This document shows, piece by piece, positions 3,062 to 32,706 of a stretch of 40,846 bases of DNA. Position numbers and translations under genes: made by a program. The stretch is from a bacterium (lineage in GTDB: Bacteria > UBA9089 > CG2-30-40-21 > SBAY01), in assembly GCA_040757115.1 (NCBI GenBank), contig JBFLYA010000006.1, positions 1 to 40,846 of the forward strand, written 5' to 3'. The stretch's first letter is position 1. The number at the start of each line of letters is the position of its first letter. The notes under the pieces were generated by a model. It ran no database searches and was not told where the DNA came from. It saw only the letters and a list, made by a program, of their open reading frames with translations.

Positions 3062-4723
3062 TCAGTTTTTAAATACAGCGCCGGTAGAGGCTGAGGTAAC
3101 CTGCTGGGCATAGCGATACAGGTAGCCTTCTTTTATCTTATATTCTGGTATCTGCCAATCTTTAAACCTTTTCTTTATCTCCTCCTCGGATAGTTCTATA
3201 TTTAATCGTTTATTAGGAATATCTATGCTTATCATATCGCCGTCTTTGATGATAGCCATTGTGCCTCCTTCTTGTGCCTCTGGTGAGATATGGCCGATAG
3301 CCGCTCCTCGAGTTCCACCTGAGAATCTACCATCTGTTAGTAAAGCGACATCTTTATCCAGACCTACACCTGCAATAGCCGATGTAGGACCAAGCATCTC
3401 GCGCATCCCGGGACCACCTTTAGGCCCTTCATATCGGATAACCACGACCTGCCCTTTTTCTATTTCCTTGTTCAAGATTGCCTTCATTCCAGATTCTTCA
3501 GAATCAAATACCTTTGCTGGTCCCCGATGGACAAGCATCTCTTGAGCAACAGCTGATTGTTTCACCACCGCCCCTTCTGGAGCAAGGTTACCAAATAAAA
3601 TGGCAATACCACCATCCTTTGAATAAGGTCTGTCAATTGGTCGGATAACATCTTCATTCAAATTTTTAGCATTTTTGATATTATCCATAACTGATTTACC
3701 CGTAGCGGTCAGCAATTCGGTATTAATTAACCCTTTTTTATTTAATTCTGACATTACCGCAGGCACGCCACCAGCTTTATCTAAATCCTCAAGGTGATGT
3801 GTGCCTGCTGGAGAGATTTTACATAGATTTGGGGTGCAACTGCTTATTTCGTTAAACAAATTCAAATCAATCTTTATATTTGCCTCACGAGCAATCGCAG
3901 GAAGATGTAAAACAGTATTAGTCGAACTACCCAGTGCCATTTCTACGGCAATTACATTTCTAAATGCCTCCTGGGTGGCAATATCTCGGGGCAGGATATT
4001 TTTTTCAAGCAATTCCATTATCTTCATTCCAGCAATCTTTGCCAATCTTTTTCGTTTAGCCGATGTCGCCAGAATAGTTCCATTACCTGGCAAACTTAAT
4101 CCTAATGCCTCACTGAGGCAATTCATAGAATTAGCCGTGAACATTCCCGCACAAGAACCACATCCAGGGCAGGCTTCATCTTCTATTTGTTTTAAGTATT
4201 CTTCGGTAATTTTTCCACCAGCATAGGCACCCACATTTTCAAAAACAGTAATCAAATCAAGTGTTTTACCTTGAAAATAACCGGTTAACATTGGTCCACC
4301 ACTGATTAAAATTGATGGAATATTCAGTCGTAACATTGCCATAAGCATTCCTGGTATAATCTTATCACAATTTGGGACTACAACCAGGGCATCAAAAGGA
4401 TATGCCATTCCCATTGCCTCAACAGAATCAGCAATCAATTCCCGTGAGGCTAAAGAATATTTCATCCCTTTATGTCCCATCGCAATACCATCACAGATAC
4501 CAATGGTAGAAAATTCCATTGGAGTGCCACCGGCTAATCGGACGCCTGCTTTTACCGCCTCGACAATATCGTTTAAATGGATATGCCCTGGTATAAGCTC
4601 ATTAGCCGAGTTAGCAATACCAATTATTGGGCGTTGAATCTCCTCATCTGTGTAGCCCATAGCCTTAAATAGTGAGCGATGAGGTGCTCTTTCAAAACCT
4701 TTTTTCATTACATCCGACCTCAT
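3062..4723 (-). CDS. ilvD: dihydroxy-acid dehydratase
   Basis: [33 protein letters not shown]-terminus is diagnostic of IlvD/EDD. Fe-S cysteine motifs ([15 protein letters not shown]) are present. Start taken at internal Met (MRSD) preceded by an aggagg SD. The 42-codon upstream extension in the ORF track starts with TTG and is probably not translated. Confidence 0.92.
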
Positions 4724-5131
4724 AAATATTTTCCTCCTTTTTATTAAGTGAATAGAGTTCTGCAAAACTAAGAAACTGTAGTTTTTAAGCGGGTATTTAA
4801 AACCTCTATTTTTATCAATTCCCTCCAAAGAGCAAAATGCAAAAAGCAAATATAAAAATTACATATCAAAATGTAAAATTATCTCTTTCCTTTCAGCGTT
4901 AAAATACTTGAAGCAAAGATATTACCAAATTCCTCCAACTCTTTGAGAAACACTATCCTTTGGCAACTTATCGATGAATTCTATAAGTCGCAGAGTAAAG
5001 TTATATAGTCTTTTCTTGAAGTCCTTTTTGAAATTTGATTTGTAATTTTGCATTTTGATATTTGAATTTTTATCTCTAATTTCAGGTCTAACTCTCAGTT
5101 ATCTCCCCCAAATCCTATTTTGCAGAACCCT

Positions 5132-12875: not shown

Positions 12876-13931
12876 TTAATTTTCCTCTAACATCTTCTTT
12901 ATCTTTTCCTTTCCAAGAAGTTTTATAAGATCTCTTTGTATTTTCTCTTCCCCAATGCTACGAATTACCTCTTTTTCCCCAATGCTACGAATTACCTCTT
13001 TTTCTCCAATGCTACGAATTACCTCTTTTTCCCCAATGCTACGAATTACCTTCTTTTCCCCAATGCTACGAATTACCTTCTCCTCTCCAATCCCTTGCAC
13101 AAATTTGTCAATCCCTACTATATCGACAAGCTCTCTCATTATATCTGGTCTATCTGCTAATGTCTTCGGCATCAATTTTACCTCCTCTTCTCCCAGACTC
13201 CGAAGTAACCTCTCCTTACCAATACCCTGGATAAACTTATCAACTCCAACTATATCTGCCAGTTCACCAATTATATCTGGTCTATCTGCTAATGTCTGTG
13301 GCATTAATTTCACCTCCTCCTTAAATTCATCAGGATGTAGATACAACCCTGTTTCTATTAACTCTACTAACTCTACCTCTAATATATCTTCCCTTTTACT
13401 ACCTATTCCCCTGGCTAATTCCCTAATGGATTCTCCTGAAGTAAAAAGAATTAGTCCATAGTTTTCAGGAGTCACCTCTAACCTATCCAGCTGGATTAAA
13501 TAAAAATTAAACCCAAAATCCGCAAAATAAAGCCCTTCCTTTATCTTTGCCAGTTTATGCCCATTACCACGAATATAATCCTCTATCCCCTTTATACCAC
13601 CGCTTAAAAGTGCATAAACATTTATTTGTCTTCGCCATTCTATATTCTTTTTTATCTTAAATAATAGCACATAAGCAAATAATCGGTCAAAATCATTCCG
13701 GGTGAATCTATCCCCAGGTGATTTATATTCAATAACATTATAATCAGTAAATGATTGGAAGACAAAAGGTAAGGATTTAACATCCGCATCCTTGCCCTTT
13801 TTAATGACCACAATATCTATCCTTAATGGCATTTTGCCAACTTCAACCTCAGTTTCAACCGTAAACCCTTTAGGTTCGAGTAGATGTTTTAATACATTTG
13901 AGAAATACGGATGCCATTTCTTCTTCATCAT
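12876..13931 (-). CDS. PD-(D/E)xK nuclease-family (Rpn/TIGR01784-like putative transposase/invertase) protein with C-terminal tandem peptide repeats
   Basis: N-terminal core RIDIVVI ... VIEYKS supplies D...E-x-K in the expected order and spacing. The C-terminus carries 2 x 39-aa (EEVKLMPxTLADRPDI..EL.DIVG.DKF.QGIG.E) and 6 x 9-aa (V/I)IRSIGEKE repeats. Confidence 0.5.
   Translation of the reverse strand: MMKKKWHPYFSNVLKHLLEPKGFTVETEVEVGKMPLRIDIVVIKKGKDADVKSLPFVFQSFTDYNVIEYKSPGDRFTRNDFDRLFAYVLLFKIKKNIEWRRQINVYALLSGGIKGIEDYIRGNGHKLAKIKEGLYFADFGFNFYLIQLDRLEVTPENYGLILFTSGESIRELARGIGSKREDILEVELVELIETGLYLHPDEFKEEVKLMPQTLADRPDIIGELADIVGVDKFIQGIGKERLLRSLGEEEVKLMPKTLADRPDIMRELVDIVGIDKFVQGIGEEKVIRSIGEKKVIRSIGEKEVIRSIGEKEVIRSIGEKEVIRSIGEEKIQRDLIKLLGKEKIKKMLEEN
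12936..13100. repeat. 27-bp perfect/near-perfect tandem repeat x6 (within CDS; encodes IRSIGEKEV x6)
   Basis: ccccaatgctacgaattacctcttttt(c/t) repeated head-to-tail. It also creates an artefactual 168-aa ORF on the opposite strand. Confidence 0.8.
13101..13335. repeat. ~117-bp direct repeat x2 within the same CDS
   Basis: atatctggtctatctgctaatgtct(t/g)(c/t)ggcat(c/t)aatttcacctcctc and flanking sequence occur twice. Confidence 0.65.
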
Positions 13932-14115: not shown

Positions 14116-15669
14116 TTATCTCTTGATCAAGAAACTCCTTTTCTCTTCGATAGATTTCTTCTCTCCATAGCTAATCTCAAATATGGCAATATATTCACCG
14201 GGCTCAAGATTATGAGGTTGTAGTAAATCTATCTTGTGAGTTCCTTGAGGTAAGATTAATATCCCTTCAGGAAGTAATATTTCAGCCACTTTTTCTCCAT
14301 GTCTTTCCTGAACTACAACTTTACCCGTAGGTTGAAGGCTTACATTCCCAGCATTCGTAAGGTTGAATGACACCTTCAACTCCTTGAGATTTGGTAAGAT
14401 TTTTAAATCGTTAAGAATGAGATTCTCTTGCAAAGTATTGGGAATAATTATGCCAATGGGCACAATAGCCTCTCCTCGTTTATCGCCAGAAGAGGCAATA
14501 AACAAAATCGCTCCATATTTCCCTCCCCGTTCCTCTTTAGGTACGGAGATATTATATTTTACAACCTTTTGTTCATTAGCGGGAATAGTAAAGGATGAAG
14601 GATTCACTTTAAGGCAATTTACGCAGGAATATGAAGTAGTGCCTGGCTCTAAATAGATAATCCGTCCCTTCTCATCAATAAATGCATCTCTTAATTCTAC
14701 CCGGATATCAATAGGGATATTCTCGGTATTAAATAATTGGATTACTCTACTTCGAAACCCTTGTGGCATAACTTTCTCATTTGCTGCCGTAGGAAGTGTA
14801 TAGAAGCTGAGGTATTCTTCACTCTTTTCTTCACCTACTCCTTTGGCTAAGACACCATTCTTTACCATAACTGGAGTTTTGCTCATTAATATCTTTTTTC
14901 TACCATATTTTTCTTGACCATAAGGGATTTTAATCTCAGCGGTATAATTGCCATCAGGCAACTTCTGGTTAATTACTGCCTTAAAATCTCGTATATCCTC
15001 GGGAAACATAGTGTAAGTATCAGCAGTAATTGGAGTTTGGGTAATTATCCTTCCTCGACCACTCTTGATATATAATATTCCTTTATCTGGAACCAGACGA
15101 ATATTACCTTTATTCTCTACGGTTATGGTAAAGATTGTATTTTCTTTTTCTTTTGTCATATCCGTATTCAAGATATTGATTTTTTCTGTAAATCCTCTAA
15201 TTCCAACCGTCAGATAGACAATAGATGCTATTCGATAATGTGCCGTAATCCCACCTTTAGCCGTTTTCTCTGGTAGGGTTTCGCACATAATTGCGGCATA
15301 CCTTTCGCCAATTGGTGTTCCCCGTGGTATGGTGACTTTACATAAAATCTTCTTTTTCTCATCCTCTTTTATAATCATCTCACCCTCTGGTTGTAGTTTT
15401 ATCCATTTTGCGCATGAATATTTTGACATACCAGCTGGAGGATATCTAAACTCCCCATTTCTTTCAATAGTAATATCAGTGGGATATATTTTTACTTTTG
15501 CCTCTTTTTTATCTGAAATAAAGATGTTAATCTCAAATGTCCTTGATGTTCCTGGGGAACCTTTAATTTCAGTAGCAAATGGGTCAAAACCAAGTTTCCA
15601 GGCAAAAGATTCTTTCCCTCCTAAACTAATAATCAACAAAATAAGTATTGTAATCTTAATTCCTCTCAT
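14116..15669 (-). CDS. secreted protein with two internally duplicated ~240-aa β-sandwich-like modules (unknown function)
   Basis: N-terminal signal peptide (MRGIKITILILLIISLGG). The two halves share the pattern F.I..F.......V.IYP.D......G.......SC..W / YSCVNCLKVNP plus a charged hairpin. It is divergently arranged with the secretin gene. Confidence 0.55.
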   Translation of the reverse strand: MRGIKITILILLIISLGGKESFAWKLGFDPFATEIKGSPGTSRTFEINIFISDKKEAKVKIYPTDITIERNGEFRYPPAGMSKYSCAKWIKLQPEGEMIIKEDEKKKILCKVTIPRGTPIGERYAAIMCETLPEKTAKGGITAHYRIASIVYLTVGIRGFTEKINILNTDMTKEKENTIFTITVENKGNIRLVPDKGILYIKSGRGRIITQTPITADTYTMFPEDIRDFKAVINQKLPDGNYTAEIKIPYGQEKYGRKKILMSKTPVMVKNGVLAKGVGEEKSEEYLSFYTLPTAANEKVMPQGFRSRVIQLFNTENIPIDIRVELRDAFIDEKGRIIYLEPGTTSYSCVNCLKVNPSSFTIPANEQKVVKYNISVPKEERGGKYGAILFIASSGDKRGEAIVPIGIIIPNTLQENLILNDLKILPNLKELKVSFNLTNAGNVSLQPTGKVVVQERHGEKVAEILLPEGILILPQGTHKIDLLQPHNLEPGEYIAIFEISYGEKKSIEEKRSFLIKR

Positions 15670-15845
15670 CTTCTTTAATAACCTCCTTTGGAATTAGAAA
15701 GTAGAGAGTAAAGAAAACAAGCCTCTTCCCTCTCTCTACTACCAATATATCATAATTCATTATGTTCTGTCAACAAAATTTTCAGAGAAAGGGGCAAAGA
15801 ATTTTGTTGACAAACATTAAAACTTAATGATATTATAGTAGCATA

Positions 15846-17714
15846 ATGAAATATAAAAAGGTGATTTTTGGGGGAATTGCTATCTTTTTAACTATAGTGA
15901 ATAACTCTTATCCTGCCACAGTTTCTACATCCTCACTCCTTAGAAATGGTGATTTTAGTGCGGGACTTGATTTGTGGGAAGAACTACGGCAGGGGAAGGC
16001 AAATATTATGACTATTAATATTGTTAAAGATAGCCCAAAGTATCCACATGTTCTTCAATTTAAAAGAAAAATAGCCAGAAAAACCATAGGTAAATTAGGG
16101 ATTAAACAGGATATAAATAGAGAGGTTGCTACTGTATCTACATCACTTTTTATCAAAACAGATGTAAAGGTAATTCACTCTTCACTTATGAGTGATACCC
16201 TTCTCAAAGGTGGGATTTACCCACTTACTCTGGAAATAGAGTATTTGGATGAACAGGGAAAAATCTACTTGTGGAAGCATGGCTTCTTATATTCCACACC
16301 CAGATATAAAGATAAAGGAGAAATGGTAAAACGGAATGAATGGCACTCATATACTTCTGAAAACCTACTTTCATTAACTCCAAAGCCAAAGATAATCACT
16401 CAGATAAAGGTCTATGGTGAAGGTTGGGAATTCTGGGCAAGGATAGCAAATCTTCAACTACTTGAAGAAAGACTATCAGTAGCCGAAGAATTAGTTACAG
16501 AGCAAAAGGAAGGCGATGAAGGAACCTCCCCCTTAATCCCTCTCCAGAAGGAGATAATTGTGGGGAGTTCGAGTCAAGAAGAAATTAAGAAAGAGGAAAA
16601 ATCTGCACTTGCGTCTGAAGAGAAAGAACCACTAATTACCAATACCTTTGTTGATACTGATATAAGGCAAGCACTTCAAGATATAGCTTCACAGGCGCAG
16701 GTTACTATTATTGCAGACGAGAGTGTTCAAGGAGTAGTATCTATGGAGTTAGATAATCTACCGTTAGAAAAGGCGCTTAAAAGAATCCTTACCCCTTCGG
16801 GATATCTTTTTAAAAAAATAGAAGATTATTACCTGGTTACCTCGTCTGACCCTACTACCCCGACATTCCTTCTATTATCTACAGTTGAACGAATTAAACC
16901 CAGTTACTTAAAAGTAGATTCCATATCTAATCTCCTACCAGCTAATTATGCTAAATATATCAAAACAGATTCTGGCGAGAATATCCTTACTGTAACCGCA
17001 CCAGCAGAGATTATTGAAGAAATTAAGGAATATATAAAAAAGATTGACCTTGCACCTAAACAAATACTTGTAGAGGTGATGGTAACTGAATTATCCGAGC
17101 AAGCAAGAAGAAGTCTGGGAATAGATTGGTCTTTCCAGGAGGGAAAGACTAAAGTTACACTTCTACCTACTACACTGGAGTTAAAAGGGAATTATCTAAG
17201 TGTTGGAGTATCCTCAGAAGCTATGGCTACCATAAAGATATTAGCTGAGAAAGGAAAAGCAAAGATTAGAGCTACTCCGCGAATACTTACTATAAATGGC
17301 AAAACAGCTAATATCTATATGGGTAGGGAAGAATACTATTCCCTACCAGGAACTGCTTATCAACCCGCAAGTTTTAGTAAGGTATTAAGTGGAATTACCT
17401 TAAAAATTACCCCTTATATATGTAGTGATGATGAGATTACAGTTTCTATTGAACCTGATGTAAGTGATGTTACTGGAATAGGCAAGGAAGGTTATCCGGT
17501 TATCAGTAAGCGAACTGCAAATACTATGGTCAGGATGAAAAATGGCCAAACAATTACTATTGGTGGACTAATTCAACAAAAAGAGGAACATAATATCACC
17601 AAGATACCCGTGATAGGAAGTATACCTTTATTAGGATTCCTTTTCCGGAATACTCAAATTAAATCTGCAGAAACAGAAATAGTGATATTTATTACACCGC
17701 ATATCATTGATTAA
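15846..17714 (+). CDS. secretin-family outer-membrane channel (GspD/PilQ-type) with atypical CBM-like N-terminal domain
   Basis: C-terminal secretin domain: the GG motif with downstream P.IG..P.LG.LF ... E.VIFITPHII, which is the canonical secretin C-domain signature. A secretin-N/STN-like domain (FVDTDIRQALQDIASQAQVTII...LPLEKALKRIL) is present. The N-terminal ~200 aa begins NGDFSAGLDLWE, reminiscent of CBM4_9-type carbohydrate-binding modules, and is followed by an E/K/S-rich linker. Confidence 0.82.
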   Translation: MKYKKVIFGGIAIFLTIVNNSYPATVSTSSLLRNGDFSAGLDLWEELRQGKANIMTINIVKDSPKYPHVLQFKRKIARKTIGKLGIKQDINREVATVSTSLFIKTDVKVIHSSLMSDTLLKGGIYPLTLEIEYLDEQGKIYLWKHGFLYSTPRYKDKGEMVKRNEWHSYTSENLLSLTPKPKIITQIKVYGEGWEFWARIANLQLLEERLSVAEELVTEQKEGDEGTSPLIPLQKEIIVGSSSQEEIKKEEKSALASEEKEPLITNTFVDTDIRQALQDIASQAQVTIIADESVQGVVSMELDNLPLEKALKRILTPSGYLFKKIEDYYLVTSSDPTTPTFLLLSTVERIKPSYLKVDSISNLLPANYAKYIKTDSGENILTVTAPAEIIEEIKEYIKKIDLAPKQILVEVMVTELSEQARRSLGIDWSFQEGKTKVTLLPTTLELKGNYLSVGVSSEAMATIKILAEKGKAKIRATPRILTINGKTANIYMGREEYYSLPGTAYQPASFSKVLSGITLKITPYICSDDEITVSIEPDVSDVTGIGKEGYPVISKRTANTMVRMKNGQTITIGGLIQQKEEHNITKIPVIGSIPLLGFLFRNTQIKSAETEIVIFITPHIID

Positions 17715-17749: not shown

Positions 17750-18316
17750 AATGGTTAACCCTACAACGACATCTATGATTGATCCACAAATCAGGTGGTC
17801 TGGTGTCTGGGTGTCTAAGTGCCTGTGAGGTGGGTATGAGTGACGATAAGTATCGGCTGGATGATTTTGAGCTTTATCAACTGGCACGTAAGTTTCGACA
17901 AAATGTTTACAAGCTCATTAAACAGCTTCCATCTGAGGAGCGCTATTGTTTAGACCCGCAGATGAGAAAGGCGATTGTCTCAGTCACGAACAACATCGCA
18001 GAAGGACATGGACGTTGGCATTATCAGGAGAATATACGATTTTGCAGGATTGCAAGAGGTTCGGTTGAAGAAATTCTGGACGACATCAATGTTTGTATGG
18101 ATGAAGGCTACGGAGAGAAATCCGTAAGCGTTCAGCTCAGGAAGGAAGGTTACGAGCTAATTGCGAAAGTTAACAGTTATATTGGCTATCTACGTAGATG
18201 TAAGCAAGGAATGGAGGAAGAACAGTCTGGTGGTCAGACACCAGACACCTATCCCTCAGAGTATCTGAACGCTTACTAGCGGTAAAATTAGTAAATGACG
18301 TTGTAGGGTTAAATAA
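17750..18316. mobile_element. TIR-flanked, GC-elevated cassette carrying a four-helix-bundle (23S rRNA IVS-type) gene
   Basis: Imperfect TIRs ttaaccctacaacgacat (17755-17773) and atgacgttgtagggttaa (18297-18314). Inner inverted motifs ggtggtctggtgtctgg / ccagacaccagac. The enclosed gene is ~47% GC against ~35% in the flanks. Confidence 0.4.
17836..18279 (+). CDS. four-helix-bundle protein (TIGR02436; 23S rRNA intervening-sequence protein family)
   Basis: Y.LARKFRQNVYKLIKQLP..ERY.L..QMRKA..SV..NIAEG.GR....E...F..IARGS..E matches the family consensus. Start placed at MSDDKYRL. The ORF-track start at 17779 lies inside the left TIR. Confidence 0.82.
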   Translation: MSDDKYRLDDFELYQLARKFRQNVYKLIKQLPSEERYCLDPQMRKAIVSVTNNIAEGHGRWHYQENIRFCRIARGSVEEILDDINVCMDEGYGEKSVSVQLRKEGYELIAKVNSYIGYLRRCKQGMEEEQSGGQTPDTYPSEYLNAY

Positions 18317-18622: not shown

Positions 18623-19279
18623 ATGTCTACTCCATTTGAGAAGGAAATTTACGATTATGAATTAGAGGCGGATATTTCTTTTGAAAGATTGGAAAAGGTA
18701 AAGCCTACAGAAGATGAGGATACAATTTTAATTAGAAAAAGTATTGAAGGTGATAATTCTGCTTTTGAGAAATTAGTGGGTCGATATGAAGCAAGGGTTT
18801 ATCACCTGATTTACAATATCTTAGAGAATAAAGAAGATGCAGAAGATTTATTACAAGAAACTTTCCTCAAGGTTTATCGATTTCTTTATCAGTTTAGAGG
18901 GGAAGCAAAATTTATTACCTATCTATATCGGATAGCAACAAATCTTTGCTTTCAAAAATTAAAGAAAAAAAAGACTTCCTATTCTCTCGATAACCTTTTA
19001 GAGGCTAATCTTAATGATGAGATGGTTGAATTAGTAAGTATGAAGTTGGGTAATCCTGAAGAAATACTTTTAAAAAAGGAACTTGGCTTAATAATAAATG
19101 AAGCTATTCAAAAATTACCTGAAAAATTCAGAGTAGTCTTTTTCCTCCGAGAAATAGAAAATTTTTCTAATAAACAAGTAAGTGAAATATTAGGTTATTC
19201 AATTGGAACTATAAAATCACAAATACATAGGATAAGGCGATTCTTACATAAGAAAATACTTCCTTATCTCACAATTTAA
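18623..19279 (+). CDS. RNA polymerase ECF-type sigma-70 factor
   Basis: Region 2 (AEDLLQETFLKVYRFLYQFRGEA.F.TYLYRIATN) and region 4 HTH (Q.VSEILGYSIGTIKSQIHR.RR.L). A ~45-aa N-terminal extension is present. Confidence 0.88.
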   Translation: MSTPFEKEIYDYELEADISFERLEKVKPTEDEDTILIRKSIEGDNSAFEKLVGRYEARVYHLIYNILENKEDAEDLLQETFLKVYRFLYQFRGEAKFITYLYRIATNLCFQKLKKKKTSYSLDNLLEANLNDEMVELVSMKLGNPEEILLKKELGLIINEAIQKLPEKFRVVFFLREIENFSNKQVSEILGYSIGTIKSQIHRIRRFLHKKILPYLTI

Positions 19280-19496: not shown

Positions 19497-19727
19497 ATGG
19501 AGTGTAATAAGATAAAAGCTCTATTATCAGATTACATAGATTTAGAGCTAAAACCTGGTTTGCAGAGTAAAGTAGAAAAACATATCTTTAAGTGTCCAAA
19601 ATGTAAGTCTTATCTAATAACCTTACAGAGAACCATCCAAATATATAAGTCTGTCCTTAAACCCTCTATTCCACCTGATGTTTCTGAACGATTGCACAAA
19701 AGGCTTAAAGAAGAAATTGAGAAGTGA
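19497..19727 (+). CDS. zinc-finger (zf-HC2/ZAS-type) anti-sigma factor, short cytoplasmic form
   Basis: C-x26-H-x3-C-x2-C arrangement (C3...H30..C34..C37) with the LSDYIDLEL motif typical of anti-sigma N-domains. It lies 217 bp downstream of the ECF sigma gene. Confidence 0.68.
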   Translation: MECNKIKALLSDYIDLELKPGLQSKVEKHIFKCPKCKSYLITLQRTIQIYKSVLKPSIPPDVSERLHKRLKEEIEK

Positions 19728-19794
19728 TAGAACATAAATCCTCATAGTTATCCAACCTCTTCTCTTATTCTATGCTTGAGAGGGATCCCTGTCT

Positions 19795-19925
19795 TTCCAC
19801 TGAAAAATAGGAAGTAGAGAGTAGAGAGTAGAAAGTAGAGAATAGAGAAAAGTAGAGAATAGAGAGTAAAGAAAACATCACTTCACACGCCTATCTCCTT
19901 ACTTCCTACCTTCTATCTCCTACCA
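19795..19925. repeat. 'agtagagag' simple-sequence array plus complementary 'ctcctacttcc' segment
   Basis: ggaagtagagagtagagagtagaaagtagagaatagagaaaagtagagaatagagagtaaag, then ctccttacttcctaccttctatctcctacc. This is part of a 1-kb repeat-filled spacer upstream of the giant gene. Confidence 0.6.
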
Positions 19926-20224
19926 CTATTTTCATCCTCCTATGTGCCGACAAGCTCGGCATGTCGGTTTCCCCTGAAAATAATCCGCAGATTTCGCAGA
20001 TTACACAGATTTTTATTTTTTTATCTCCCCGCTGGCGGGGGATTAAGGGGTTAGGGAATTCTTTTATTCCCGAATCCCGAGTCCCGAGTCCCTTAATTTT
20101 CATCATCCTTTGTGCCCACTCCCTGTGGGCATGAGTGTCTCTCCTTCTAACTTTTATTTTCTATCCTTCTTGATTCTCTGCCACTGGAGGAAATTTCCAC
20201 TCCCAACCCCCCATCGGGGGACAA

Positions 20225-20332
20225 CCCGCTTCTGTCCTCTGCCTTCTGCCCTCTGCCCTCTGCTTTCTGCCCTCTGCCTTCTGTCTTCTGCCCTCTGTAT
20301 TTATCTGTGTTAATCTGTAGCTGAATAATTAC
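20225..20332. repeat. partial family-1 MITE right end (cctctgcc simple repeat + agctgaataattac terminus)
   Basis: Matches the right half of 954-1202, including ctgt(a/c)tttatc(c/t)gtg(c/t)taatc(c/t)gt...gctgaata(g/a)ttac. Confidence 0.5.
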
Positions 20333-20396
20333 AAAAAATTAAAAAATTTTTGCAACCTTTTTGACAATTTTGTAATCTATTTATTTAAAGGGAAGA

Positions 20397-20583
20397 AATT
20401 TCCACCTGTGCGGTTAAATGTAAAATGGATAATGTAAAATGAGAAATGTCCAATGAAAATGTATAACTGAAAGGTAATGAGTCTTGCGAAGTCCTAAAAT
20501 TTCCCAAATTTCATTTCCTATTTTACATTTATTTTTCCTTTGCGTCTCTGCGATGAATTAGTCTAATCGCACAGGTGGAAAAA
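20397..20583. mobile_element. MITE-like element family 2, copy A (TIRs ttccacctgtgcgRtta / taaYcgcacaggtggaa)
   Basis: ~187 bp, AT-rich core with 'tgtaaaatg' repeats. It is the reverse complement (a few mismatches) of 31461-31651. A solo terminus lies at 867-884. Confidence 0.7.
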
Positions 20584-20724
20584 TTTGTGTAATGTGTAAG
20601 AAGAGGAGATTTTTGGGAATTATGGAGAGATGGGGATAAGATAAAAATTACATCTTCCTATCTCCAATATCTCCATTTCCCCTTTTTTATACAATTTTTT
20701 AAATAAATTGGAGGTAAATAAATT

Positions 20725-23700
20725 ATGTGTAAAAAAATTATTTGGGGAATAATGTTGGGAATAGTGATGATTATTAATGCAAAGGTTGCTGTAGCAACAG
20801 ATGTCAGTGGTACTATCACTTCAAATACTACCTGGGATGTTGCTGGCAGTCCCTACATCATCACTGCTGATGTCATTGTCGATCAAGGAGTAACATTAGA
20901 GATTGAGCCGAATGTAGTAGTTAAATTTGCGACCGATACATCATTAATCAGCTATGGGACATTGACCGCTGTTGGAATACCGAATGGGACGATTACCTTT
21001 ACTTCTAATAAACCTACACCTGCTGCTGGAGATTGGACGAGTATTAAACTCAGTGGTACAGGAAGTAGTAGGAGCCAGATCAGTTATTGTCTGACACAGT
21101 ATGCCAAGCAGGCAGTATATTTGGAGAACACGGATAATGTAACGATAACATATAATACAATTAGAGATAATAAAGGTAATGATGGAATTGATAATCAAGC
21201 AACTACTGGGGAGATAGGTGCTGGTATCTATTTAGTGTCGTCAACTAATAATAACATTGAGAATAATACTATTTTTAATAACATTGGTGGACAAGGAGGA
21301 GATGGTGGATATGGTGGTGGAGTTGGTGGTGCTGCTGCAGGAGGACCAGGGGTTGGAATCTATCTTTCTTCATCAAGTAAGAATACTATCTCTCAAAATA
21401 CCATCTTTGATAACATTGGTGGACAAGGGGGAAGAGGAGCGCTTTTTGGAGGAGGAGGTTCAGGTGGTTCTGGAGCTGGAATTTACCTCTCTTCCGCATC
21501 AGTAGAGAATACCATCTCTCAAAACACCATTTTTAACAATGCTGGTGGGCAAGGAGGACAGAGTGGTGATTCTGCTCCAGGTGGTGCAGGCGATCCAGGG
21601 GTAGGATATGGCATCTATATTGATGATTCAAGCTGTTACAACAATACTATTGCTACAACCAATACTTATAATGGTGAGCCAATTCATTTCTACTATAGTC
21701 AAACAGGAATTATTATTGAAGATCAGATTTTAACTGGATCACCTACAACAAACTTAGGAAAGATTAACTTGATTAACTGTTCAGACTTTACTATCAGAGG
21801 AAATACTATTTCAGGAGCAAGAGGATATAGTGGTGAGAGTGGAGATCCTGAAGGTGAACAAGGAGGTAATGGAGTAGGGATATACCTATATCGCTCAGGA
21901 AGTGGTGTTGTTACAAGCAATAGTATTTCCGATAATATTGGTGGTCGTGGTGGTACCGGTCGGAAAGGTTGGTATGCAGCGAGTACAGGAGGTTCAGGTG
22001 GCATGGGATGTGGAATATACCTTTTGTCCTCTACAGATGTTGAGATTAGTGATAATATCATTTCTAACAATCAAGGTGGAAGAGGTGGTGGTTCTGCTGG
22101 TTGGGGTTCGGGTGGTAAAGGTGGACTTGGAGTAGGAATATCTCTCGGATCATCTACTTTAAACAGTATTAGTAATAACACTATTTCTAATAGCCAAGGT
22201 GGACTTTATGGAGGTGGATGGCCGTGTGGAAGAAATGGATTAGGTTGTGGTATCTATATAGACTCAAACAGTTATAATAATATTATAGATACAACTAATA
22301 CCTCTGATGGTCAACCAATCCATTATTATTACAACCGGACAGGGATTATTATTGAAAATCAGACATTAACAGGAACACCTACTACAAACTTAGGAAAGAT
22401 TGTTTTAATTAACTGTTCAAATTTTATTATCAGAAATAATACCATCTCTGGAGCTAGAGGAGATAATGGTAAAACTGGTTGGGCTAATCAAGTAGGTCAT
22501 CCTGGTGAAATTGGTGCTGGAATTTACATTTTATCATCAACAGGTAATACTATAATTGATAACACTATCTCTGATAATCAGGGGGGATTAGGTGGAGGAG
22601 GTGGTGGTGATGCTTCAGGTGGACCTGGTGGTATAGGAACGGGAATATACCTTGGTTCATCTACAAATAATACTATAAGTGGCAACACAATTTCTAATAA
22701 CAGTGGCGGAGAAGGTGGTCATGCTACTTATGGCAATAATTCTTCGGTAGGTGGCTGTGGTGGTGATGGTGCTGGAATTTATCTTTTATCATCAACTGAT
22801 AATACTATTCTCTCTAATAATATATTAGAGAATAGTGGAGGTAGAGGAGGTGGTGTTTATCAACAAGGTAATACTGGTGGTGTCGGTGCTGGTATATACT
22901 TAAACTCATCAGATAATAACAATATTAGTAGAAATAGTATCACAGACAATAATGGTGGTACAGGTGGCACTGGTAATTGTAGCCGAAATAAAGCTGGTGG
23001 TGCTGGTGGTATTGGTGCTGGTATATACTTAAACTCATCAGATAATAACAATATCAGGGAGAATAATGCCATTACAGATAATAGTGGTGGTACAGGTGGC
23101 AGTGGTTGTCCCATTGGTTCAAATGGTAATGGAGTTGGTATCTACGGTGCCTCTTCAGAAGTTGCCAATCTTATCTACAATAACATCTACAACAATACAA
23201 CCTATAACCTCTCAACTGACATCTCTCCGGGCACACAAACAGCAGAATATAACTGGTGGGGAACTTCAGTTGAGTCTGAAATTGTAGCTAAACTATCTGG
23301 TAAGATTGATTATATTCCCTGGTTGATGGGGACATGGACAGAATCAGCACAGATTACAATCTCACCTACTTCTGGTACTGTGGGTACCATCGTCACTGTA
23401 GAAGGTGAAGGATTTGGAAGTACAGAAACTGTACAGATAGATTTTGGAACGACTAAGACGATTACTACTGCCGCAACTAATGGCTTAGGAACTTTCTCAG
23501 TTACTTTCACTATTGATAACCAGCCAGCAGGTACAACTACAGTTACAGCTACTGGTCTTACATCTTCCTATTCTGCTACTGCCACATTTACAATAATTTC
23601 CATTACACAACCAGAGATTACTTTAATATCACCAACCTCTGGTACCGTGGGTACCATCGTTACTGTAGAAGGTAACGGGTTTGGTTCAACAGAGGCTATT

Positions 23701-26700
23701 CGGATAGACTTTGGGACAACTAAAACAATTAAAATAAGCACTACCAATGGAAGTGGACAATTTACTACTACTTTTACAGTCGATTACCAACCAGGCGGAA
23801 CTACTACTCTAACCGCAACAGGGCTTACTTCCAATTTAGTCGCTACGGCTACCTTTGTGACCATCACCCAGCCAACTACCGTTATTGAGCAAGAAGACTT
23901 CTGGAGATATACATATTCACCTAACTCTGGCTGGGAAACATTAGGATATGATGACAGTAGTTGGAGTAAAGGCAGAGCTCCTTTCGGAAATCAGTCTGAT
24001 GGTGATTGGATTCCTCATACAGATTGGCCTGCAGGGACGACACTATACCTTAGAAAGTATATTGATTTACCTGCATCTGCTAAATTGACTATCTATACTG
24101 GCGTAGATAACGAAATCCATATCTATATAAATGGTGTTAATATTTTTAATGCCTCTGCTCATGGATTTACATATCGCTGGGAATATACATTTGACATTCC
24201 TAAAGGATATATAAACCCAGGAAGAAATGTAATTGCTGTGCAAGCAGTGGATTGGGGTGGCGCGACAGGATTTGATCTGAAGGCTATTGCTGAGGTCAAT
24301 ATACCTCCAATGGGTTCTATGGCAATTAGTTCTGTGCCTTCGGAGGCAAAAATTTACTCAGATGGAATGGATACAGGTAAACTCACTCCTGCTGTCTTGA
24401 CCAATCTATCCACAGGTAGTCATCAAATTGTCTTAACTAAGCCTTTGTATAACAATTGGGCTGAAACTGTTACTGTATCCTCAGGACAGACTACAGAAAT
24501 AGATGTTCCTCTTAGACTTTCTCCAACAATTATCCTTACCCCTATTTCTGGTACTGTTGGAATTATAATCACAGTTACAGGTGAAAACTTTAGTCCAAAT
24601 GAGGCAATTAGGATTGATTTTGGTCTGATTTCTTCAATTACCATCGCCAGTACTACTGCCTACGGCACCTTTGCCACTACTTTTACGGTATCTTCTCAAC
24701 CAGCAGGAACCACTACTATTGTGGCTACTGGTCTTACCTCCGGGTCAAAAGCCTATGCTACCTTCACGCTTACTATTCCGGCGCAAGCAACACTGACTGT
24801 CCGATTAGACCAGATTGATGCCGCTAAATTCCCAACTATCGAATGCCATGTCCGTGTAACTCAAGGAACTACATCTATTGCAGGACTGACTGCGGATAAT
24901 TTCCAATTAACCGAGCAGTCTGAATTAGAATCTATAGCGACCGTAGAGATAATCAGTGTCAGTGCAACTAATTCCGCCGGAGTAGCCATCGCCCATGTAT
25001 TAGATAGAAGTGGTAGTATGCAAGGTCAGAAGATAACAGATGCTAAAACTGCCGCTAATTCCCTTGTTGATATGATGCAACCTCTGGATAGGATGGCGAT
25101 AGTCTCCTTTGCTTCAAATGTTACTGTTGACCAATCCTTTACCAGTAATCAATCTGCCTTACATACCGCTATTAACAACTTAGTTGCCGATGGAGCCACG
25201 GCTTTGTATGATGGCATATATACGGGAATAGGTCAATGCACACAAGAAATTGGTGTTAAAGCAGTTATTGCTTTAACCGATGGTCAAGAAAATAGTAGTT
25301 CACATACTCAGCAACAGGTAATTGATTATGCTATTGCCAGTGCTGTGCCTGTTTATACCATTGGTTTAGGCAGTGATGTGAATACTGACATACTTACGCA
25401 AATTGCCACAACTACTGGTGGAACATATCATTTTGCACCAAACTCTACTCAGCTACAAGAGATATTTGCAGATATTAGAGAAGAGATAGAACAGCAGTAT
25501 TTAGTTACTTATAATACTCATAACCCGAATTATGATGGCACACTGCGGAATGTAGTCATTACTGCGAGTTATAACTCTGCCATTGGCTCAGATTCTGGGA
25601 CATATCGTGTAGATGAACCACCGAAAATTATCCGCACCCCAGAAACTATTGCCTTAGGTTCACAAAGTCAACCTGCCAACCAACCATTGACTATCGCCGC
25701 AACCATTACTGATAATACCGCAGTTACTAATGCCACCTTATTCTATCGACATTCGGGAACACTAACCAGCTATTCTCAGCTGACTATGACTCATATGGGT
25801 AATAACCTGTATAAAACAACTATCCCAGCCGCAAGTGTTAATTACCCGGGCGTGGATTACTATATCACTGCCTCAGATGGTAGATTAGTCGCTTCAGACC
25901 CAAAAAACAATCCTGAAATCTACCCATATCAGATTGCGGTATATCCTAATGAAAAACCAGTGATTATACATACCCCTGTTTCTGGAGCGTTAATTAACTC
26001 ATCAGTAACTATTACTGCCTATGCTACGGATACCACAGATTATGTTACTTCGGTAACCTTATCCTATCGTATCAAGGGTTATGTGCTTTATGAGAATGTA
26101 GTTATGACTAAGGCAGGTAATACTTATACCGCTACCATACCGGCGAATAAGATGACCTTTGTCGGGGTCGAATACTATATTGTCGCGATGGACAATTATG
26201 GTTTGCGGGCATATCACGGCACAGATGTTAATCCACACTACATTCGTCCCAATGTTCCACCGAGTATAACCATTACCGCACCACCAGCACAAGGGGCTTA
26301 TGCTACCAGTTCTTATACCATCGCCTGGGTAGATGCTGACCCGGATAATGATGCCCAAATATCACTCTACTATGATACCAATAACACTAACTATGACGGC
26401 TCAACTATCACTACTGGACTTTCTGAGGATAGCAGTATCAATAGCTATATCTGGAATCTCTCAACTATCCCCGAAGGTAGTTACTATATCTATGCCTTGA
26501 TAGATGATGGCACTAATACACCCGTCTATGACTACAGCAATGGACCATTAAATATTGATCATTCACTACCACGAGCAACCATTACTACCACCCCTGCCTC
26601 ACCAATTACTGCTGCTGGGACAGTCTATGTTATCTTAACTGCCTCAGAAAAATTATCTGCCGTCTCACTGACATTTACTCCCTATGGTAAATCACCTCTC

Positions 26701-29700
26701 TCTATACCGTTGACTACCACGGATTATATCACCTGGCAAGGTAATTTCCAGGTTACTCTTTATACTGGCGATGGAATAGGCACATTTAACTATTCCTTGA
26801 AAGATTTATTCAATAATATTGTTACCGGAAGCCAAACTTTTGAGATAGATGTTTCAGGGGTAATATTTACGCAGTCAAATTATACCTTCAATGTTGAGAA
26901 GGACTATAATCAGCAGGGATTGGTTAGGGTTAAGAATATCGATAATGAGCCACACCAATTCTTCGCAGAATCTATTAATGTCCCTAAACCAATAGCGGTA
27001 AATTTTATGGGTGATGGTTCTGTGGATAATCCGATTACCTTACAGCCCGGGGAAGAGACAAATCTTATTCTATCAATGCATACCCAATATGCCACGAAAA
27101 CAAATTACTCCCTCGGCGGTAACTTGACCAATGATAAAGGGTTAATCTCGCATACGACAATAAATATTAATGTTCGCCTGCCCGAGGTTAGATTTACGGT
27201 TAGTCTTATCAGTGAAGACCCAATGACATTAGCCAAAACCTATAGAATTACCAATACGGGTGCTGACCCAATTCCGGATTTAACCATTGACCTCGGTGCA
27301 CTTAAAGATAAGGTGATTATGCATCCGTTACTCTATTCGCTATACTTAGGCACATCGAGTTCAGTTGAATTTAAGCTCATCCCCATTATCACTGAGACTT
27401 TTAGTGGGCTATCTGGCACCTGGAGTGTGAGTAGTGGAGATAAGGTGGTGGAGGTTCTTACTACCTGGCAGGTTACAGGAACCATCTATAAGGTAACATT
27501 AAATCAGCCCAAACTCGTCTTTGATATTAATTATCTATATCAATATGAATTAGAACAACATAAAGTAATAGTGGGATATTGTCCTAATGGAGCACCAATC
27601 TGGGGATGGGTAGCAGACCCGAGGTTAATTAAGAGCATTGACCCATTCTATATACCAACAGGATTTGGAACTTCAAATGTCAAAAGTGCAAACTTGAGTA
27701 TGCATTTTACAGAAGGAAATATTGAGCAAAATCGCAATACCTATATCTATATGAATAATAATGAAGTGGGTAGATTAATAAATGTTAATCCGGAAGGGTA
27801 TTATACATTTCCAGTTGCGCCAGACTATTTTATGTATCCCGACCCGTATGTTGGTAATCGCCGCAATGAGATTAGTATGGAGACAGATATAAATCCTGCT
27901 CATTTAGCCTGGGTAGGTAATTTCAGGGTTACCATACTCTTAGATAAGTTTGAGGTGTATGTTATTGCTACAAGTTCAGCGGCGGCTACCGCTACTGCCT
28001 GGGCATTACCCTATGTGCATCATAATTCAGACCAACTATTTGTCAATATTACTCAACCACCAGAGGGATTTGAGTATAAGATAGGTGCGAAGGTGCAGAT
28101 TAAGGCTGAGGTAAAGGATGAGCATGACATCTTCCAGTGGCTCTGCAATGTCTGTGTAAGTTTTACCAATAGCACCCAAACACTGAATTTATACGATGAT
28201 GGCATGCATAATGATGCCGGTGTAAATGACGGTATTTATGCCAACTACTGGTATCCTGCCAATGAAGGTAGTGTTACTATCACCGTGGTGGCGAATAACT
28301 GTAAGACACAGGCGACTGCGACAGTTAGTGGCAATATTATTGGCAATCGACCGCCGAGCATAGACATTCTTACCCCTACTGAATTACAAACATTACAAGG
28401 AACTACCACTATCTCGTATCAAGCCACAGACCCAGATGGCGATAGTTTATATTTCTATATCTATTATAGTGCCTCCTCGATTGGTCCCTGGAATCTGTTC
28501 TACAGTGGCGTAAATACTGTCTATCTCTGGAATACTAATATCCTGGAAAATGGTATTTACTATATTCGGGTAGTAGCCAGTGACCCTAACGGATTGACAG
28601 GCTCAGATACCGTCAAGGTAACTGTAAAGAATAAAAAACCAAAGATTAGAGTTAATCCTACTGCTGGCTCTCAATGTGCCTTAGTTACGGTTTATGGTGA
28701 AGACTTTGGTGCGACAGAGACGGTTCAGATTGACTTTGGGTTACATCTTAATATTACTACTGGCATGACTAATGCCGAAGGCTCATTTACTACCTTTTTT
28801 ACTGTCGATACGCAACCGGTTGGCACAGTCTCAGTAGTCGCTACCGGTATTGATTCACACCTGAGGGCCTCTGCAGATTTCACTATTACTGCACTACACT
28901 ATATCAAAGGATATATTCGCTATGCGAATGGTGAAGGAATTCCAGGCATCAAAGTCTATTTAATGAGCCCAATAGTAGATGACTGTTTTATCACTTCATC
29001 TGATGGTTATTATGAATTTACCGGTTTGCCCACCGGATATTATCGTGTAAGACCATATAAAGAATGGTATACATTTGAGCCAGCAGGAAGGGAATACCGC
29101 ATACTTACTGCCAGTTGCGATAATCAGAACTACATCGGGACACCACAGAGGTATTATATTAAAGGTAGATGTAACACAGAGGCAGATGAAGGGATAGGTG
29201 GAGTGCAGGTAGTTTTATCAGGTTCTGTGCAGGCAACCTATACTACTAATGCCAGTGGATATTATGCCTTCTGGGATGTTCCGGCGGGCACATATACCAT
29301 CACCCCTTATAGGCAATTCTATACCTTTGTTCCGGCAAATAGAATCCTTCCTAACATAGATTTCCATCAAGCAGGACAGGATTTTGTTGGCACATCTACT
29401 ACTGTAGAAAGATATTATATCAAAGGAACTATCACGGATATGAGTCATAATCCGTTAGCCGGGGTAAGGGTATATCTGTTTGGCACGATGGATAATGTTT
29501 TTATCACCAGAGCAGATGGTTATTATGAATTTACCAATCTTGAGTCAGGTTATTATCGAACCAGCCTGTGGAAACAAGGATATACCTTCGAACCATCTGG
29601 CAGAAGATATGAATACCTGTGTAGCCATTATGAGCATCAAGACTTTGACGATGATGGTCCACCACAAGGAATTCAACCACCACCACCTACCAGTACACTC

Positions 29701-30468: not shown

Positions 30469-31413
30469 ATGTTAAACAAAAAGGTACAACAGGTAAGTAT
30501 AACTCTATTTCTTTCTTTACTCTCTACTCTCTACTTTCTACTTCCTAATGCCGAGGCAGGGGCGGATACCGGCGCTGATTTCTTAAAGCTGGGCGTAGGA
30601 GCAAGGGCATCTGCAATGGGTGAGGCATTTTGTGCCGTAGCAGATAGTGTTGACTCTATTTATTACAATCCGGCAGGATTAGCCCGGCTGAAACAAAAAG
30701 AGGTCTCTGCAATGTATGGCGATAAACGAGAGGATACTGCCCGCACATCATTAGTTTATGCCCAGCCACTACAAGAATGGGAAGCTGGTGGCGTATTAGG
30801 AATAGGTATCATCTATCAAGACTTAGGTGAGATAGAACTGCGTGATAAATCTAATCAACCACAAGGTTCTATCAATCCCGCTGAGTTTGCCGTGATTTTC
30901 TCCTATGCGAAAAAGTCTTATGAAAATCTATTATTAGGTGGGAATGTAAAATACATCCAACGCGAGCTTAAGAAAATAAAGGCTAAAGCCGTTGCCTTTG
31001 ACCTTGGTCTCCTATATTTCCCGCAAATCCCAAAATTCCTAAACCTCTCAGGAACAGGTTTAACTACAGGTCTGTGTCTGGAGAATATAGGTAGTAAGAT
31101 AAAGGGTGATGAGTTGCCGTTAAACTTACGGCTTGGTGTAGCGTATTCGCCTTTAAATAATCTCTGCTGTAGTTTAGATGTGAACCAACACCTTTATAAT
31201 TCCGACTTATGTTGGAATCTTGGGCTTGAATATAGATATAGTTTGTTGGCTGTCCGACTGGGCTATTTTGACAAAGGAAGACAGATAAAGGGATTGAGTT
31301 ATGGGTTTGGAATAAAGTATCTGGGTTATCAGCTTGACTTTGCTAATCTTGCCAGTGGTGAGATGGAAAATGCAGAAGATATGAACCGCATATCCCTCTC
31401 AGTGAGTTGGTAG
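30469..31413 (+). CDS. PorV/PorQ-family-like outer-membrane β-barrel protein (T9SS-associated shuttle family); alternative: UPF0164/FadL-like
   Basis: Signal peptide. N-terminal motif GADFLKLGVGARASAMGEAF.AVADSVDSIYYNPAGLA resembles the conserved PorV/PorQ N-terminal block (G..FL.IG.GAR..AMGGAF.AVADD.SA.YWNPAGL). Alternating β-strand pattern with an aromatic C-terminus (SLSVSW). Strong SD aaggagg. Confidence 0.55.
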   Translation: MLNKKVQQVSITLFLSLLSTLYFLLPNAEAGADTGADFLKLGVGARASAMGEAFCAVADSVDSIYYNPAGLARLKQKEVSAMYGDKREDTARTSLVYAQPLQEWEAGGVLGIGIIYQDLGEIELRDKSNQPQGSINPAEFAVIFSYAKKSYENLLLGGNVKYIQRELKKIKAKAVAFDLGLLYFPQIPKFLNLSGTGLTTGLCLENIGSKIKGDELPLNLRLGVAYSPLNNLCCSLDVNQHLYNSDLCWNLGLEYRYSLLAVRLGYFDKGRQIKGLSYGFGIKYLGYQLDFANLASGEMENAEDMNRISLSVSW

Positions 31414-31792: not shown

Positions 31793-32428
31793 ATGAAAAA
31801 ACTAACATTACTTACTATGCTTGTCCTTGGGCTACTTGCTACCGCTACCTATACAACTACAGTATACGCAGAAGATACACAAGCTTATTATACGCAGAAC
31901 AACACACCTGTTCCTTCATCTATTGCATGGGGAACTGGAGTGAATACACCCTACCAGAGCTTCGGTGGAGGTCCCTGCGTAGCAACAATGACCCATACTT
32001 TTTACTATGACAGAGAATGTATAGTAGTGGATATTGATGATGACCACCTTGAATGGACATCCAGAGCGGGTGAGGCTGATTATATGATTATGTGGACAAA
32101 TATCTATGCCTGGGCAGCGGCTACTGGAACATATTATTTGCAGATAACTGCTACAGGAACTGACCATATAAAGAGAAGTGATGGAGCGACTATCACCACA
32201 TCCTATGCGTTAGTACCACCAAGTGGTCCACATCCTACTCCAGGTGATTTTATCCTGGCACCAGCCTTCAATGGTAATCTACCAAATACTCCAATTGAGG
32301 GTGTCAATGGTTCCCCAGTAAGATATGATAGAGACCTGTGGGCAAGGGTCCAACCAACCAACAATAATCCATTAGGAAAATACGAGGATGTATTCTACCT
32401 CACCTTTGCAATTACACTGACACCGTAG
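31793..32428 (+). CDS. small secreted hypothetical protein (211 aa) with signal peptide
   Basis: MKKLTLLTMLVLGLLATATY signal, strong SD aaggaggtg. Locally elevated GC (~45%). No recognisable domain. It is followed by a hairpin plus T-tract. Confidence 0.55.
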   Translation: MKKLTLLTMLVLGLLATATYTTTVYAEDTQAYYTQNNTPVPSSIAWGTGVNTPYQSFGGGPCVATMTHTFYYDRECIVVDIDDDHLEWTSRAGEADYMIMWTNIYAWAAATGTYYLQITATGTDHIKRSDGATITTSYALVPPSGPHPTPGDFILAPAFNGNLPNTPIEGVNGSPVRYDRDLWARVQPTNNNPLGKYEDVFYLTFAITLTP

Positions 32429-32518: not shown

Positions 32519-32580
32519 ATAGCGGTTATTAACTGGAAGTTTACATAGGATAATACCCATAAATAAGGCATGAGAATAAT

Positions 32581-32706
32581 CGTTCCGTTAGGAACATAAT
32601 ATTGGTAGGAATAGATAGACAAATCAATCAGTTCCGTAGGAACGATATATTGGTAGGAATAGATAGACAAATCAATACAGTTCCGTAGGAACGATATATT
32701 GGTAGA
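32581..32706. promoter_or_regulatory. three tandem ~47-bp direct repeats, each with a gttcc-gta-ggaac hairpin core, 130-250 bp upstream of giant gene 2
   Basis: (c)gttccgt(t)aggaac(a/g)ata(a/t)attggtaggaatagatagacaaatcaat(a)ca x2 plus a truncated third copy. Candidate operator or iteron array. Confidence 0.45.

Follow-up and report, generated by a model that had tools for sequence, protein, structure and literature searches.

A secretin gene with an N-terminal jelly-roll module

The window analysed here is the whole of contig JBFLYA010000006.1 (40,846 nucleotides, 40.8 kb; assembly GCA_040757115.1), from a bacterium of the UBA9089 lineage, and its subject is a secretin gene located at 15846..17714 on the forward strand. 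The gene is an intact open reading frame (ORF) with an ATG start that encodes 622 amino acids, the stop codon being included in the coordinates. Its product joins the core of a short secretin to an N-terminal β-jelly-roll module, a rare fusion, and it belongs to a so far undescribed clade of secretins whose genes lie, at every locus recovered, directly beside a gene for a secreted protein resembling the WxL-interacting proteins (WxLIPs) of Gram-positive bacteria. The domains of the secretin are arranged as follows.

15846..15914 (+), Sec-type signal peptide, residues 1–23
15915..16472 (+), N-terminal β-jelly-roll module, residues 24–209, with a modelled fold like that of carbohydrate-binding modules (CBMs) and no match to any Pfam or NCBIfam model
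16473..16631 (+), low-complexity linker rich in E, S and K, residues 210–262
16632..16865 (+), N0/STN domain, residues ~263–340
16890..17063 (+), single Secretin_N domain of N1/N3 type (PF03958), residues 349–406
17241..17711 (+), secretin C-domain (PF00263), residues 466–622

The signal peptide, which was read from the sequence, lacks a lipobox cysteine, and the family alignment begins directly after it at residue 24. At the opposite end, the C-terminal secretin domain that an initial annotation of the sequence had recognised was recovered by Pfam far above its threshold (PF00263, E 1.2e-41, 142.6 bits vs a gathering score of 27.5); it forms the end of the protein and is followed by no S-domain. 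The STN or secretin-N-like domain which the same annotation had placed before it was likewise found, with STN (PF07660, residues 287–333) scoring 30.4 bits, above its cutoff of 28.4, Secretin_N marginal and just short of its own (E 1e-5; 26.1 vs 28.2 bits), and type_II_gspD_N0 giving a weak match at residues 268–301. The start of the N0/STN domain, at about residue 260, is also the point at which conservation with unfused relatives begins, and N0 and the Secretin_N region are kept in all relatives. The preceding linker, correctly noted as long and rich in E, K and S, contains 13 E, 7 S and 6 K in 53 residues, and its length and sequence differ among the five secretins that share the fusion. 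Among the NCBIfam models, that of the PilQ subfamily (TIGR02515) is the best match, with 182.7 bits against a cutoff of 284.35; GspD (TIGR02517) reaches 175.3 bits against 351.35, and the scores of SctC and MshL are also far under their cutoffs. Judged by these models, the protein is a secretin but no recognisable member of any named subtype. Secretins as a superfamily assemble into gated outer-membrane channels of 12–15 subunits.

Pfam gave no match in residues 1–260, and the AMIN domain (PF11741) was not found in the N-terminus. This region contains the motif NGDFSAGLDLWEE at residues 34–46 and WHSYTSENLL at about residues 166–175, both quoted in the initial annotation, which had likened the first ~200 residues to a CBM4_9-type jelly-roll rather than to the usual N0 or AMIN domains. 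An AlphaFold2 (AF2) model was built from a 43-sequence alignment (A3) drawn from a search of cluster representatives; it reached a predicted local distance difference test score (pLDDT) of 96.3 and a predicted template-modelling score (pTM) of 0.90, and it replaced an unusable earlier model from a 4-sequence alignment (pLDDT 44.6). In this model, which is all-β with 12 strands, residues 24–209 adopt a β-jelly-roll (galactose-binding-like) fold. The nearest solved structures are CBM70, CBM16, a porphyran CBM, CBM61, CBM4, CBM22 and CBM11, and Foldseek returned CBM16, CBM11, CBM4-2 and CBM22 at template-modelling scores of about 0.5–0.56, together with the CFAP20 jelly-roll. CFAP20 is a protein binder, as are two further fold neighbours, the Eph receptor ligand-binding domain and reelin. 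No AMIN or N0 structure occurs among the structural matches listed. The jelly-roll fold and its distinction from N0 and AMIN have thus held, whereas membership of the CBM_4_9 sequence family (PF02018) has not: the window copy has no match at E≤5, and only 2 of the 43 family copies have sub-threshold matches, the best with E 0.06. A profile search of the PDB with the module returned nothing significant, the only hit being an NGDF motif against Cry1A protoxins (E ~0.7).

A hidden Markov model (HMM) of residues 24–215, run against 1.84 billion cluster representatives, matched 615 proteins at E<1e-3 and 256 at E<1e-10, and because of the 615 representatives the module is regarded as a mobile, widespread domain. 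It is covered by no Pfam or NCBIfam model in any carrier examined, and the carriers, whose sources include Candidatus Desantisbacteria and one DPANN archaeon, are all named ‘hypothetical protein’ or ‘uncharacterized protein’ in their records. An N-terminal hydrophobic stretch is present in 96 of the 133 carriers that start with M (149 carriers in total), and the domain is found in proteins with C-terminal sorting domains of the type IX secretion system (T9SS-CTD), in PEP-CTERM and dockerin proteins, in FecR proteins with a transmembrane (TM) anchor and in one OmpA-domain protein. A Pfam census of companion domains in 102 carriers matched 41 families. FecR is the commonest (14 carriers); CarboxypepD_reg was found in 5, PKD and PEP-CTERM in 3 each, BlaR1 M56 and NosD/β-helix in 2 each, and OmpA, a sigma-70 fusion, dockerin and secretin in 1 each. 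The 25 most frequent families, which were inspected, include no glycoside hydrolase (GH), polysaccharide lyase (PL) or carbohydrate esterase (CE). These properties describe an extracytoplasmic domain with a CBM-like modelled fold and a predicted ligand-binding role, for which carbohydrate is a plausible ligand at the level of the fold. The closest relatives of the module outside secretins (P0045–P0052) carry two to three tandem copies with long P/E/K-rich linkers between them, resembling the linker of the secretin, and may be paralogues from related organisms.

The fusion of this module to a secretin is rare. A word-indexed search of 5.8 billion proteins with the secretin found only three full-length relatives (P0002–P0004, ~60% identity), further and shorter secretins aligning only from residue ~260 on. 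The jelly-roll HMM search contributed P0058 (635 aa, 41% identity), so that the search for homologues with the same fusion, which the initial annotation had proposed, produced five such secretins including that of the window (P0001), all with the same continuous architecture. Since five independent proteins share it, the fusion is not an artefact of assembly or gene calling. Scans of genome contigs (two loci, one clade member, WOR-3 genome) and of metagenome contigs (two loci) returned only unfused forms.

The partner gene and the secretin clade

The strongest clue to the function of the secretin, which was absent from the initial annotation, is a conserved partner gene located immediately upstream and transcribed in the opposite direction.

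14116..15669 (−), partner gene, encoding a 517-aa secreted protein with two tandem WxLIP-like units and no TM helix
15670..15845, divergent intergenic region of 176 bp between the partner and secretin genes

Each WxLIP-like unit of the partner consists of a PGBD/DUF916-like domain and a second Ig-like domain. Pfam detected two WxLIP_PGBD stretches (PF06030, E 6.4e-12), and a profile of the partner and its few homologues (A4) matched both domains of the EfmWxLIP1 structure (PDB 9i1y; E 8.6e-5, profile positions 33–271). The second half of the protein repeats the first unit as an internal duplication, and this repeat and the EfmWxLIP1 profile match together identify the partner, at the level of sequence, as two tandem, duplicated copies of the PGBD+HBD unit found in the WxL-interacting proteins of Gram-positive bacteria. 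Its C-terminus (…KRSFLIKR) has no hydrophobic tail and thus no C-terminal TM helix. Gram-positive WxLIP clusters are defined by the presence of at least two WxL-domain genes (PMC10599100). Such a set is not found around the partner: neither its neighbours in the window nor the small proteins of related loci, which are of a different family, gave a Pfam WxL-domain match. The 176-bp spacer contains two back-to-back predicted sigma70-like promoters with extended −10 elements (15807–15836 on the forward and 15773–15744 on the reverse strand); each matches the consensus at 11 of 12 positions, in a scanned region whose total of such matches is not above that of shuffled sequences. The divergent predicted promoters are consistent with co-regulation of partner and secretin.

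As determined with the A4 profile, the partner lies directly beside the secretin in every clade locus fetched, amounting to 11 distinct loci: the window, L001, L002, L003, L004, L007, L008, L009, L010, L011/L012 (from one WOR-3 genome) and L014. The two genes are divergent in the window and L001, and in L002 they are on the same strand and overlap by 4 nt. The E values of the partner are 5.5e-38 in L003, 1.9e-97 in L004, 1.6e-182 in L007, 2.6e-26 in L008, 6.1e-63 in L009, 6.8e-198 in L010, 3.1e-194 in L011 and L012, and 4.4e-135 in L014. Most of the related contigs are short (3–20 kb), and P0004 and P0197, which were counted for the adjacency of partner and secretin, both come from contigs of 3942 bp. 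In a simple neighbour-joining distance tree of the region from N0 to the C-terminus, all partner-linked secretins group together in one clade, to which the PilQ and GspD hits do not belong. Within it the five fused secretins make up a subclade, which indicates a single fusion event. At L007, a second, truncated secretin gene (4102–5055; 318 aa, with the Secretin_N and secretin domains only) overlaps the end of the partner-linked secretin gene by 4 nt at its start.

The initial annotation had remarked that no pilus, GspE/F or type II secretion system (T2SS) pseudopilin genes were adjacent to the secretin, and the remark holds for the contig as a whole. A scan of every plausibly coding ORF of at least 120 aa in the 40.8 kb, from which overlapping ORFs in opposite or alternative frames were excluded, found no T2SSE, T2SSF, PilMNOP or N_methyl family, no ORF with a prepilin motif and no gsp gene beside the secretin. 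At the 11 distinct clade loci, there are no pilMNOP, GspE/F or pilin genes of type IV pilus (T4P) or T2SS type. Outside the clade, the nearest relative is P0012 (28% identity), which is encoded in a classical pilMNOPQ-type operon with T2SSE, T2SSF, pilins and PilO. An Rfam scan was negative.

Most of the unfused loci also encode at least one small secreted β-rich protein. L007, L011, L012 and L014, as well as L010 with two copies, encode members of a family of 199–250 aa that shows ‘RKPG’ and ‘LWNKI.V...EY.D.ATITLTL’ motifs and has no relative in the PDB, Pfam or NCBIfam; L008 and L003 carry instead arrays of β-rich proteins of 142–205 aa, three of which, in L008, are mutual paralogues. The loci of fused secretins (window, L001, L002) have no small-protein gene next to the partner/secretin pair. 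Capture of a small-protein gene as the origin of the fused jelly-roll was rejected, HMM and hhalign comparisons showing no relation. A possible counterpart is encoded elsewhere in the window.

31793..32428 (+), small secreted protein of 211 aa, directly after a PorV-like gene (30469–31413, +) and 14 kb from the secretin

The family of this protein (A9) aligned with the small proteins of the related loci (A10) in hhalign over 191 columns (Prob 97.4%, E 1.5e-11), and phmmer matched the window protein itself to the small protein of L007 (E 2.3e-4). The A9 family has at least four paralogues with the same locus-tag prefix of a metagenome-assembled genome, and the pair of a PorV-like gene followed by an A9 gene occurs in the window and again in L016. 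On these alignments the 211-aa protein is a distant member of the small-protein family of the clusters and a candidate for a third component or for cargo. L004 has a weakly PorV-like barrel after the secretin.

The remainder of the contig encodes housekeeping functions, an extracytoplasmic function (ECF) sigma factor with a short zf-HC2 anti-sigma factor, two giant T9SS-CTD proteins and the PorV-like barrel. The features other than housekeeping genes are listed by position.

120–557 (−), ORF matching the C-terminal part of CfrBI restriction endonuclease (E 5.5e-13), with a weak OLD-type TOPRIM match; probably a gene fragment near the contig end
12876–13931 (−), 351-aa ORF without a Pfam match, containing a 27-nt tandem repeat (4.9 copies, 12948–13078) that encodes ‘IRSIGEKEV’ units
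17779–18279 (+), 23S rRNA-intervening-sequence protein (PF05635, a four-helix-bundle family), between the secretin and the ECF sigma factor; L001 has no gene at this place
18623–19279 (+), ECF sigma factor, downstream of the secretin
19497–19727 (+), short zf-HC2 anti-sigma factor of 76 aa without TM helix, after the ECF sigma factor
19728–20724, non-coding stretch of 1 kb upstream of the 3215-aa T9SS-CTD protein, with the heptamers AGTAGAG (×8, 19813–19872) and TCTGCCC (×9.6, 20231–20297), arrays that may be regulatory or phase-variable
20725–30372 (+), giant surface protein with a T9SS C-terminal sorting domain, 3215 aa; a perfect 42-nt duplication lies at 29781–29865
32578–32705, 48-nt repeat (×2.6) upstream of the following gene
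32835–40604 (+), giant surface protein with a T9SS C-terminal sorting domain, 2589 aa; a 285-nt repeat (×2.4) lies at 38214–38890

One of the giant proteins has β-helix/NosD, VWA and PEGA domains and the other C25 peptidase, FG-GAP and CARDB domains, and T9SS cargo genes recur on the flanks of the partner/secretin pair in L001, L009, L011 and L012. The order of secretin, ECF sigma factor and zf-HC2 anti-sigma factor recurs in L001 (5167–6087), where the sigma factor is 55% identical to that of the window, and is absent in L002; the anti-sigma factors of both loci are 76–80 aa long and lack TM helices. The pair is a candidate for a functional link to the secretin.

Function of the partner-linked secretins

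The reading favoured here, whose chances are put at about even, is that the partner-linked proteins constitute a distinct clade of short secretins (N0, one N-domain and the secretin domain, without an S-domain) which serves a WxLIP-like export or display module, and that the jelly-roll is a tethered periplasmic anchor or docking head. The secretin would be an outer-membrane conduit that exports or displays the WxLIP-like partner and the small β-rich proteins without T4P or T2SS machinery, and the system, with no ATPase encoded in the cluster, would correspond in a diderm to the WxL/WxLIP surface complexes of Gram-positive bacteria. In one subclade, of five proteins, the secretin has gained a jelly-roll of 185 aa at its N-terminus, attached by a flexible acidic linker of ~53 aa. 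The N-domains of secretins face the periplasm, N0 being farthest from the outer membrane, and because of this established topology the jelly-roll would be a tethered head in the periplasm, where PilQ has its AMIN domains. Most likely this head would bind a ligand, which might be a periplasmic glycan polymer, with peptidoglycan as the obvious choice, on which the channel would be anchored and positioned; or else the head would be a docking site for the partner or cargo. Anchoring is preferred because contact with peptidoglycan is a recurring need in the assembly and positioning of secretins, as illustrated by AMIN, ExeA/B, FimV and TsaP.

The WxLIP-like protein could have either of two roles. 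It might be a periplasmic adaptor or chaperone, its Gram-positive relatives having been proposed to insert a β-hairpin into WxL domains (PMC10599100), or it might itself be the cargo, displayed at the surface through a dedicated secretin. The clusters themselves supply no energy source, and the drive for export would have to come from folding or polymerisation, on the pattern of chaperone-usher or two-partner secretion, or from machinery encoded elsewhere.

Several points weigh against this reading. Every functional claim in it rests on gene neighbourhood and fold, and no energy source for export is evident in the clusters. With most related contigs as short as they are, ATPase or platform genes could lie further off, and the scan of the window for T4P and T2SS genes covers 40.8 kb rather than the whole genome. 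The small-protein gene of the window is 14 kb away and paired with a PorV-like gene instead. The 25 most frequent companion families of the jelly-roll include no carbohydrate-active enzymes (CAZymes), sensor proteins of FecR and BlaR1 type being the commonest companions, and this is as compatible with a general sensor of ligands or proteins as with glycan binding. Finally, the secretin copies have A for D in the common C-terminal ‘DN’ motif of the family, and a typical site for metal or ligand may be changed in them.

The FecR and BlaR1 companions and the want of CAZyme contexts favour docking of the partner or cargo, which is the main alternative to anchoring. A related explanation, considered possible though rather doubtful, accepts the same clade and takes the jelly-roll to be a protein-binding or signal-sensing head, which captures the partner or cargo or couples the state of the channel to envelope signalling. 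The companion census agrees with it in its 14 FecR proteins, 2 BlaR1 M56 proteins and single sigma-70 fusion, with no GH, PL or CE among the 25 most frequent families; so do the protein binders that share the fold, the lack, at fused loci, of a neighbouring small-protein gene such as most unfused loci possess, and the sigma/anti-sigma pair that follows the secretin in the window and L001. However, true CBMs predominate among the top structural neighbours, the small proteins are no homologues of the jelly-roll, and the sigma/anti-sigma synteny is confined to two close relatives and encodes a soluble 76-aa anti-sigma factor with no periplasmic part.

An unlikely explanation is that the protein is a PilQ-type secretin of a T4P or competence system with its other genes elsewhere, the jelly-roll replacing AMIN as the peptidoglycan anchor and the WxLIP-like gene being accessory or unrelated. 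The PilQ model is the best NCBIfam match, the order of N0, single N-domain and secretin domain is PilQ-like, P0012 lies in a pilMNOPQ-type operon, and T4P genes are often dispersed. Against this, the PilQ score falls short of its cutoff by 100 bits and is nearly equalled by that of GspD, the clade stands apart from the PilQ hits in the tree, and pilMNOP is upstream at 0 of the 11 distinct clade loci, all of which have the WxLIP-like gene in that place; nor were pilin-motif ORFs or T4P families found in the 40.8 kb. A secretin of filamentous-phage pIV type, or a remnant of one, was checked and rejected as highly improbable: residues 270–621 align to inovirus gene IV proteins (23–26% identity) and the minimal N0, N-domain and secretin architecture is the same, but this identity is no higher than that to PilQ or GspD, phage genes (pI/Zot, coat, replication) are absent from the window and the related loci, and a cellular partner gene is conserved across divergent lineages.

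The favoured reading can be carried a step further, to the tentative proposal that the partner-linked secretins represent a new secretin-dependent pathway without a nearby ATPase, in which a short secretin exports or displays the tandem WxLIP-like protein and small subunits and the jelly-roll is a lineage-specific anchor or docking head. Such a pathway would be pictured as a diderm WxL surface complex or as a ‘chaperone-secretin’ fibre pathway. Secretins are known from four contexts, namely the T2SS, type III secretion systems (T3SS), the extrusion of filamentous phage and type IV pili (with Tad and Com), each of which is coupled to an inner-membrane ATPase machine. If the proposal is true, the partner-linked clade adds a fifth use of secretins to these four. 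A secretin clade always paired with a WxLIP-like Ig-domain protein, with no machine nearby, would suggest a new outer-membrane route in poorly studied phyla (WOR-3 and relatives) and would tie diderm biology to Gram-positive WxL surface systems. Besides AMIN and the trans-acting LysM/peptidoglycan-binding partners, secretins would have in the jelly-roll a third kind of module for envelope anchoring or docking, and the fusion would give a first functional context to a large domain family (>600 representatives) matched by no Pfam or NCBIfam model.

Comparison with known systems

A literature search found no paper linking secretins with DUF916/WxLIP proteins and none reporting a CBM-type module on a secretin. 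The closest architectural likeness is to PilQ (TIGR02515), which has a signal peptide, one or more accessory N-terminal modules on flexible linkers, N0, an N1-type domain and a C-terminal secretin domain. The accessory modules of PilQ bind periplasmic peptidoglycan, and the jelly-roll occupies the same position. It is, however, a 185-aa jelly-roll and not AMIN, the tandem WxLIP-like gene is found where PilQ has pilMNOP upstream, and the proteins form a separate clade with a PilQ score under the cutoff. GspD shares the secretin domain and N0 but has an N0-N1-N2-N3 series and a gsp operon, whereas the clade has one Secretin_N domain and no gsp genes. Phage pIV has the same minimal core of N0, one N-domain and the secretin domain, and sits with phage pI, a context not seen here. 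Neither pIV nor GspD has an N-terminal jelly-roll. The β-sandwich CBMs that resemble the module in fold (CBM70, CBM16, CBM61, CBM4, CBM22, CBM11) differ from it in sequence, with 9–16% identity and no Pfam CBM match at threshold; the domain is also larger, and its family members are not attached to CAZymes.

The Gram-positive WxL/WxLIP clusters (DUF916+DUF3324; PMC10599100; PDB 9i1y) share with the partner the same two-domain PGBD+HBD unit, a secreted product and a location in a small cluster with other secreted β-rich proteins. In contrast to them, the unit is duplicated in tandem and has no C-terminal TM anchor, no Pfam WxL-domain genes are present, the host is a diderm and the cluster includes a secretin. 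Chaperone-usher and two-partner secretion offer an analogy only, the pore in the present case being a secretin rather than an usher or Omp85, with no detected sequence relation to PapD/PapC; the likeness lies in a small operon that combines secreted Ig-like or β-rich subunits, a periplasmic Ig-like protein and one outer-membrane pore, and that operates with no dedicated ATPase.

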